Shown here piece after piece: positions 58,199 to 58,215 of a DNA stretch of 64,000 bases. The notes under the pieces were generated by a model. It did not search any database, was not told the origin of the DNA, and was given only the letters and a program-made list of their open reading frames with translations. The stretch lies in NCBI RefSeq assembly GCF_050920415.1, contig NZ_CP169309.1. One strand, given 5' to 3'. Both the position numbers and the translations under genes were made by a program. This DNA is from Escherichia coli. Lineage in GTDB: Bacteria > Pseudomonadota > Gammaproteobacteria > Enterobacterales > Enterobacteriaceae. The first letter of the stretch is position 1. Each line of letters starts with the position of its first letter.

Positions 58199-58215
58199 GG
58201 CAAGATTTACGCCAG
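58199..58215 (-). promoter_or_regulatory. candidate sigma-54 (-24/-12) promoter for xdhABC
   Basis: Minus strand reads CTGGCGTAAATCTTGCC: TGGC and TTGC cores at correct spacing, about 95 nt upstream of xdhA ATG. Confidence 0.35.

Follow-up and report, generated by a model that had tools for sequence, protein, structure and literature searches.

The window analysed here, a stretch of 64,000 nucleotides of Escherichia coli DNA, carries the xdhABC operon in the order xdhA, xdhB, xdhC, followed by the divergent gene ygeV. The xdhA region matches K-12 xdhA (b2866) and is present in 5,411 of 5,426 complete E. coli genomes, and the 17-mer under study lies in the intergenic region between actS(ygeR) and xdhA. 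The features of this locus are as follows, with positions of upstream elements given relative to the predicted transcription start.

52663..54441, plus strand: ygeV (uacR/isrR), the sole bEBP gene of the cluster and the putative activator
54481..55835, minus strand: the rest of the operon, xdhB (54957-55835) and xdhC (54481-54960)
55846..58143, minus strand: xdhA coding sequence, 765 aa when read from the conserved ATG (annotated in K-12 from 58104, 752 aa)
58188, minus strand: predicted transcription start (A), placed 19 nt downstream of the motif centre
58199..58215, minus strand: sigma-54 -24/-12 element of xdhABC, CTGGCGTAAATCTTGCC, recognised by a PSSM score of 15.4 bits, ChIP-seq identity and conservation
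58248..58263, minus strand: T-tract, N6 and TCACA block, TTTTAACGTCATCACA, centred at -67.5, a CRP-like half-site or architectural site
58313..58325, minus strand: proximal dyad, ACTCATATTGATA, yTCA-N3-TGATA, centred at -131, 21 bp from the distal dyad
58334..58346, minus strand: distal dyad, a candidate UAS half, TATCACATTGATT, TATCA-N3-TGAk, centred at -152, PWM score 15.2-15.6 bits

The original prediction had described intact TGGC and TTGC cores at canonical spacing at 58199-58215 on the minus strand, roughly 95 nt upstream of xdhA, and the sequence agrees on each point. In the minus-strand context of the 17-mer (58215..58199), cgtttCTGGCGTAAATCTTGCCtgctta, TGGC and TTGC are separated by the 7 nt that are canonical for sigma-54, and the GG (58213-58212) and GC (58201-58200) dinucleotides form an exact GG-N10-GC. 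Relative to the consensus TGGCAC-N5-TTGCW, GT replaces AC at -22/-21 and C replaces W after TTGC. The 3' end of the motif lies 95 nt from the K-12 ATG (58104); the conserved upstream ATG (58143), which is the RefSeq/PGAP start, is just 56 nt away.

Matches to the bare core are not by themselves evidence of a promoter, since TGGC-N7-TTGC occurs at chance frequency in the 64-kb window (5 observed versus 4.4 expected, with no enrichment); a looser sigma-54 consensus gives 42 matches versus 43 expected. A PSSM was therefore built from 134 ChIP-seq-defined motifs of Bonocora et al. 2015 (PMC4591121), with the xdhA site left out. On this leave-one-out matrix the xdhA 17-mer scores 15.4 bits, against a median of 14.4 bits for validated sites, and it exceeds 97 of the 134. 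Markov simulations predict about one hit of this quality per 64 kb over both strands, versus two observed, and we estimate a probability of approximately 1e-3 that the 150 nt upstream of any one gene hold such a hit in the right orientation. The element is intergenic, oriented in the sense direction and close to the gene start, with the predicted transcription start 45 nt from the conserved ATG.

Two further sequences in the window resemble the element or parts of it. The string TAAATCTT, extendable to TAAATCTT(T)GCC, is present in two copies spaced by 20 nt, at 58202-58209, where it forms the promoter spacer and -12 region, and at 58182-58189, just downstream and around the predicted transcription start; the downstream copy is without a -24 GG, and is kept within E. 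coli only. In the 3' part of xdhD, ATGGCGCAAACTTTGCT (34862-34878, minus strand) scores 15.5 bits on the sigma-54 PSSM and so equals the xdhA site. It is sense-oriented, lies approximately 500 nt upstream of xanQ, is absent from the high-stringency tables of Bonocora et al., and may be either an intragenic site of low stringency or a fortuitous match.

The sigma-54 promoter of xdhABC is already published and listed in EcoCyc, and so is not new. In Table 1 of Bonocora et al. 2015 (PMC4591121), the identical 17-mer appears as site OS29 under a K-12 sigma-54 ChIP-seq peak assigned to xdhA (peak centre 2,998,270; FAT 11; PSSM 10.9; 84 nt from predicted TSS to ATG), with the EcoCyc flag ‘C’, denoting an experimentally confirmed promoter. 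RpoN ChIP-seq data at the homologous K-12 position were the check put forward with the original prediction, and this peak supplies it. Furthermore, Zhao et al. 2010 (PMC2831329; Table 2) list the same xdhA site, as tttcTGGCGTAAATCTTGCCTGctta at -110..-93, and report that xdhA rose 4.9-fold when sigma-54 was induced and dropped 2.1-fold when rpoN was deleted, so that the proposed sigma-54 promoter of xdhABC is borne out by both occupancy and rpoN-dependent expression. The K-12 promoter (EcoCyc; OS29; Zhao et al. 2010, Table 2) shares with the window the same 17-mer, its flanks and its gene context, with no differences from approximately 40 nt upstream of the motif through the xdhA start; SNPs are scattered further upstream only, and none fall in the dyads or the TCACA block. 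Because the promoters are identical, the published K-12 data transfer directly to the window.

The published datasets are not uniform with respect to xdhA. Under sigma-54 overexpression, the RNA-seq of Bonocora et al. (PMC4591121) found that among genes with intergenic sites only glnA, glnH, pspA, pspG and glmY rose; the lack of xdhA induction is expected if its activator was inactive, yet contradicts the 4.9-fold rise reported by Zhao et al. RpoN gSELEX recovered the ygeV/ygeW spacer and not the xdhA promoter. A Reg-Seq preprint names xdhA as a target, and we found no xdhA result in its text. An xdhA entry for P. putida (PMC11997794) concerns another gene in another organism and was set aside as irrelevant. 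Separately, a gSELEX study (PMC8743547) places an NtrC-binding peak at the xdhB/xdhC boundary (K-12 ~3,001,538 in U00096.2, window ~54960), approximately 3.2 kb downstream of the xdhA promoter.

Conservation of the element extends well beyond E. coli. A scan of a genome collection with XdhA yielded 32 loci, of which 29 are enterobacterial and represent 11 genera (Escherichia, Citrobacter, Kluyvera, Atlantibacter, Buttiauxella, Hafnia, Enterobacillus, Yokenella, Klebsiella (Klebsiella indica), Trabulsiella and Pluralibacter). For each of the 29 enterobacterial loci, the highest-scoring sigma-54 match within 500 nt upstream of xdhA falls 77-108 nt before the codon aligned to the K-12 start, and scores 13.5-16.6 bits. 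TGGCGT and TTGC are invariant across the 29 loci while the five spacer bases vary freely, and invariant blocks around a free spacer are the signature of a functional -24/-12 element. Within E. coli, the promoter module was found in 5,328 of 5,426 genomes. One further locus (L031), assigned to Terrisporobacter mayombei, is a 459-nt low-coverage contig encoding a partial XdhA that shares 97% identity with the E. coli protein, and is almost certainly E. coli contamination of a Firmicute assembly.

The same loci bear on where xdhA translation begins. An ATG at 58143, 13 codons upstream of the K-12 start, is kept in most of 30 loci and is preceded by a Shine-Dalgarno sequence, GAGGGG, at 58155-58150, and the position of the K-12 start codon is instead CTG, TTG, TTA or CGG in Trabulsiella, Buttiauxella, Hafnia and Enterobacillus. 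Three other E. coli strains likewise have a 765-aa XdhA in their PGAP annotation. The K-12 gene is probably annotated 13 codons too short. Placing the transcription start by the rule of Table 1 in Bonocora et al. 2015 (PMC4591121) puts it at 58188, which is 84 nt from the K-12 ATG, as in that table, and 45 nt from the conserved ATG, so that the predicted 5'-UTR would be approximately 45 nt long.

Upstream of the element, a phylogenetic footprint of 15 species reveals three conserved blocks in otherwise unalignable DNA: the dyad pair, the T-tract/TCACA block and the -24/-12 element itself. The dyad cores are 19-22 bp apart across this alignment, and positions relative to the promoter are similarly constrained. 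The dyads lie within 2 bp of -152/-131 in 29 of 30 loci (the distal dyad at -150 to -155 in 29/30), and the TCACA box is centred exactly at -67.5 in 25 of the 30 and within 1 bp of this position in 29. Over these same loci, with their rigid upstream spacing, the distance from transcription start to ATG ranges between 28 and 59 nt. Among Escherichia species, E. albertii and E. whittamii have a wholly different sequence in the ~50 bp that separate the dyads from the TCACA block, and its length is kept. We infer that such rigid spacing is what enhancer looping dependent on the face of the helix would require, and the position of the dyads, together with their recurrence at other sigma-54 promoters, points to candidate bEBP enhancer sites.

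The TCACA block is harder to assign. At xdhA it reads TTTTA-N6-TCACA, matching 8 of 10 positions of the CRP consensus TGTGA-N6-TCACA, with both G's of the left half missing; conservation covers the right half, and the left half is only T-rich. The involvement of CRP at xdhA is therefore uncertain. An IHF site between UAS and promoter seems less likely, since the block, judged by eye, fits WATCAANNNNTTR poorly.

Two other sequences in this region were considered and rejected. A perfect 12-bp palindrome, TGATACGTATCA (58306-58317), was a candidate UAS, of which only the TGATA part is conserved across genera. A 24-nt direct repeat, CCCTATTT..TCCTG..CGTA (58278-58301 and 58359-58382), whose copies in the xdhA upstream region are 75% identical and 81 bp apart, was a candidate part of the module and is E. 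coli-specific. Neither the repeat nor the palindrome occurs in E. albertii, E. whittamii or other genera.

The upstream architecture of xdhA recurs elsewhere in the cluster. A 13-nt dyad matrix, trained on non-E. coli xdhA dyads, was scanned over the whole 64-kb window, and its top single hits were at 42826-42838 upstream of ygfK (19.7 bits), 27457-27469 upstream of ygfT (17.8 bits) and 52495-52507 in the ygeV-ygeW spacer (17.8 bits), followed by both xdhA dyads. When pairs at 19-23 bp spacing are considered, the best are those of xdhA (31.5 bits), ygfK (29.5 bits) and ygfT (25.3 bits), against a simulated maximum of 18.9 bits. The ChIP-seq-validated sigma-54 sites OS29-OS32 each lie downstream of dyads found by the matrix, at xdhA, ygeW, ygfK and ygfT, and the last three promoters share an xdhA-like layout.

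52278..52507, minus strand: ygeW promoter, with sigma-54 element at 52278-52294, CRP box at 52337-52352 (-77.5) and dyad at 52495-52507 (-234)
42641..42838, minus strand: ygfK promoter, with sigma-54 element at 42641-42657 and perfect CRP box at 42720-42735 (-97.5)
42806-42818 and 42826-42838, minus strand: ygfK dyad pair (-182/-202)
27457..27650, plus strand: ygfT promoter, with CRP box at 27586-27601 (-67.5) and sigma-54 element at 27634-27650
27457-27469 and 27477-27489, plus strand: ygfT dyad pair (-198/-178)

The ygeV-ygeW spacers from 12 further species, none of them used to train the matrix, served as an independent test set. The ygeW dyad is found at -234/-235 in all 12, a CRP box at -77.5/-78.5 in 11, and a sigma-54 site of the form CTGGCAY-N5-TTGTT scores 13.6-15.3 bits in these species. 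The original prediction had found only a weak match upstream of ygeW, a view that no longer holds: CTGGCACACTTATTGTT (52294..52278, minus strand) scores 14.3 bits, lies under a ChIP-seq peak (FAT 3) and is an RpoN site by gSELEX. At ygfK a validated site does exist, as the earlier candidate had implied, but it corresponds to GTGGTGCGATTGTTGCT (42657..42641), with TGGT in place of TGGC. The broader suggestion of shared control by RpoN and YgeV fared well as regards RpoN, with sigma-54 ChIP-seq peaks also at ygeW, ygfK and ygfT; as regards YgeV the support is indirect, and comes from the iModulon described below and the dyad motif common to the four promoters.

Between dyads and promoter, ygfK carries a full match to the CRP consensus (TGTGAGTTCATTCACA, 10/10 positions) and ygeW and ygfT carry 9/10 matches, and the three boxes (-97.5, -77.5 and -67.5 respectively) are all in helical phase. 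Only six CRP boxes with at most one mismatch occur in the window, and four of them sit 67-98 nt upstream of a sigma-54 transcription start: these three and one that precedes the yqeC-internal site IS34, at -78.5. Published CRP gSELEX hits include ygfK, ygeV<>ygeW and ygfT<>ygfU, and xdhA is not among them. Glucose is described as repressing urate degradation, and the literature also cites a CRP site within the ygeV-ygeW spacer.

Several isolated matches to parts of this module were also observed. A CRP-like box within yqeC, TGTGACGTAATTCTCA (43913-43928, plus strand, one mismatch), lies at -78.5 from the predicted transcription start of IS34, the published yqeC-internal sigma-54 site (43972-43988, plus strand) that drives yqeB, and its phase is as at ygeW. 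We found no strong dyad upstream of IS34, and a 14.9-bit dyad downstream, at 44216-44228. Unpaired dyad matches of 14-15.3 bits fall in coding regions at 49435-49447 (ygeY), 50650-50662 (ygeX) and 44216-44228 (yqeC).

The most likely occupant of the dyads is YgeV, as suggested by the shared dyad motif, gene adjacency and iModulon membership. YgeV is intact and, by Pfam, comprises a weak GAF domain, a PAS domain, Sigma54_activat with GAFTGA at residue 347, an AAA lid and a Fis-type HTH (HTH_8), without a receiver domain. The label ‘orphan response regulator’ used in the IsrR paper (PMC9426417) seems a misfit for these domains, and a ligand-sensing bEBP seems the more apt description. Its gene adjoins xdhABC in 8 of the 11 genera; in Kluyvera, Hafnia and Enterobacillus the promoter and dyads are kept with no ygeV or other bEBP gene within 10 kb. 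The PRECISE-1K ‘YgeV iModulon’ comprises xdhABC, ygeWXY-hyuA, ygfK-ssnA-ygfM-xdhD and ygfT. YgeV has since been renamed UacR, since both urate degradation and the expression of ygfT rely on it, with ygfT expression cited as lowered in a ygeV mutant. The new name reportedly goes back to Iwadate and Kato in 2019. Our literature search, in which ‘UacR’ is confounded by the clinical UACR, found no YgeV binding study or motif, no account of ygeV-dependent xdhA expression and no mapping of the xdhA transcription start. As a separate observation, one Pluralibacter MAG (L029) carries a bEBP-like ORF fragment (8939-9730), 37% identical to YgeV, immediately upstream of xdhA; the 3' end of this fragment appears to carry a Fis-type HTH, and it is extra to the ygeV orthologue found downstream of xdhC on another contig (L020).

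Taken together, we put the probability at just under nine in ten that the 17-mer is the -24/-12 element of xdhAp, an RpoN-dependent promoter that would operate in four steps. RNA polymerase carrying sigma-54 binds the element as a closed, inactive complex, a step shown by the published ChIP-seq. An AAA+ enhancer-binding protein on the -152/-131 dyads would then loop to the polymerase and remodel it with ATP, as the anatomy of the region suggests, and transcription would start near 58188 only upon contact with the activator. This activator would most likely be YgeV/UacR, encoded just downstream of xdhC, given that the dyad motif is common to the ygeW, ygfK and ygfT sigma-54 promoters and that the operons are co-expressed. 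Finally, in what is the least certain step, the TCACA block at -67.5 probably binds CRP weakly, or some other bending protein, which would aid looping and couple xdhA expression to carbon status.

A more specific version of this scheme may be offered tentatively, as one that we regard as a little less probable than its negation. Here TATCA-N3-TGATA, usually present as a pair 20-22 bp apart, would be the operator of YgeV/UacR, and would form with a CRP box at -67.5, -77.5 or -97.5, in fixed helical phase, and a sigma-54 core a common module of UAS, CRP box and promoter. CRP rather than IHF would bend the DNA for looping and would also confer glucose repression, and the CRP element of xdhA would have decayed to a half-site.

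Several alternative hypotheses may explain parts of these data. The AT-rich dyads might instead serve some other DNA-binding protein. In one alternative, which we consider unlikely, sigma-54 binds at xdhA and another bEBP, such as NtrC or an unlinked one, activates it, the dyads being either its site or that of an unrelated regulator. The three genera with promoter and dyads and no ygeV within 10 kb are in keeping with such an activator, as are the NtrC gSELEX peak at the xdhB/xdhC boundary and the fact that our search of the literature found no direct link between YgeV and xdhA. However, dyad pairs in the 64 kb are confined to the sigma-54 promoters of the cluster, the motif is present at all four of these promoters flanking ygeV, the dyad is kept in the ygeV-ygeW spacer of 12 species, and the YgeV iModulon spans these operons; moreover, no NtrC-type TGCACC-N5-GGTGCA was seen by eye in the xdhA upstream region.

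A still less probable explanation is that the site is poised and non-productive, and that transcription of xdhABC really begins at a sigma-70 promoter within this intergenic spacer. Most of the 135 sites of Bonocora et al. (PMC4591121) were transcriptionally inactive in their conditions and xdhA did not respond to overexpression, which would fit such a site, and the spacer does hold two weak sigma-70-like matches (9/12 each), at 58448-58420 and 58318-58289. Yet these matches occur at the frequency of shuffled sequence (2 versus 2.1 expected) and one of them overlaps a conserved dyad, whereas the sigma-54 element is intergenic and in the sense orientation, with its predicted transcription start 45 nt from the conserved ATG, and is kept with its fixed-distance upstream sites across 11 genera; the expression data of Zhao et al. 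2010 (PMC2831329) also point the opposite way. Finally, one might suppose, from the near-random count of bare cores and the approximately one 15-bit hit expected per 64 kb, that the 17-mer fits a short degenerate consensus by chance and has no function. This idea is refuted by the ChIP-seq occupancy of an identical sequence and by conservation in 29 of 29 loci around a freely varying spacer, and we regard it as vanishingly improbable beside the reading of the 17-mer as the -24/-12 element of xdhAp.

Canonical bEBP-dependent sigma-54 promoters possess a tandem UAS with a bending protein between it and the promoter, as in glnAp2 with NtrC, or nifH with NifA and IHF. The xdhA promoter resembles these in its -24/-12 element, in its two dyads at -130 to -150, spaced by approximately two helical turns, and in a conserved intervening element at approximately -67. 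It differs from NtrC and NifA sites in the sequence of its dyads, TATCA-N3-TGATA, and from IHF-type promoters in that its intervening element resembles a CRP half-site. Another parallel may be the prpBCDE sigma-54 promoter, which is said (by Lee, Newman and Keasling, in 2005) to need both the bEBP PrpR and CRP. Like prpBCDE, the cluster comprises catabolic sigma-54 operons under carbon catabolite control, with ygfK, ygeW and ygfT among CRP gSELEX hits and the pathway repressed by glucose; unlike prpBCDE, the CRP box of xdhA is degenerate and goes undetected by gSELEX.

The xdhA promoter itself adds nothing beyond EcoCyc and the 2015 ChIP-seq study, and the value of the present analysis lies in the regulatory logic that surrounds it. 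We found no description of the dyad/CRP architecture common to xdhA, ygeW, ygfK and ygfT, which is a modest by-product of this work and suggests that a single YgeV/CRP circuit takes in xdhABC along with the rest of the cluster. The ygeV-flanked cluster encodes anaerobic degradation of urate and purines, and is of interest with regard to the disposal of urate in the gut and to engineered probiotics. The conserved dyad motif and the CRP-phased layout provide testable targets for de-repressing or re-wiring this pathway.
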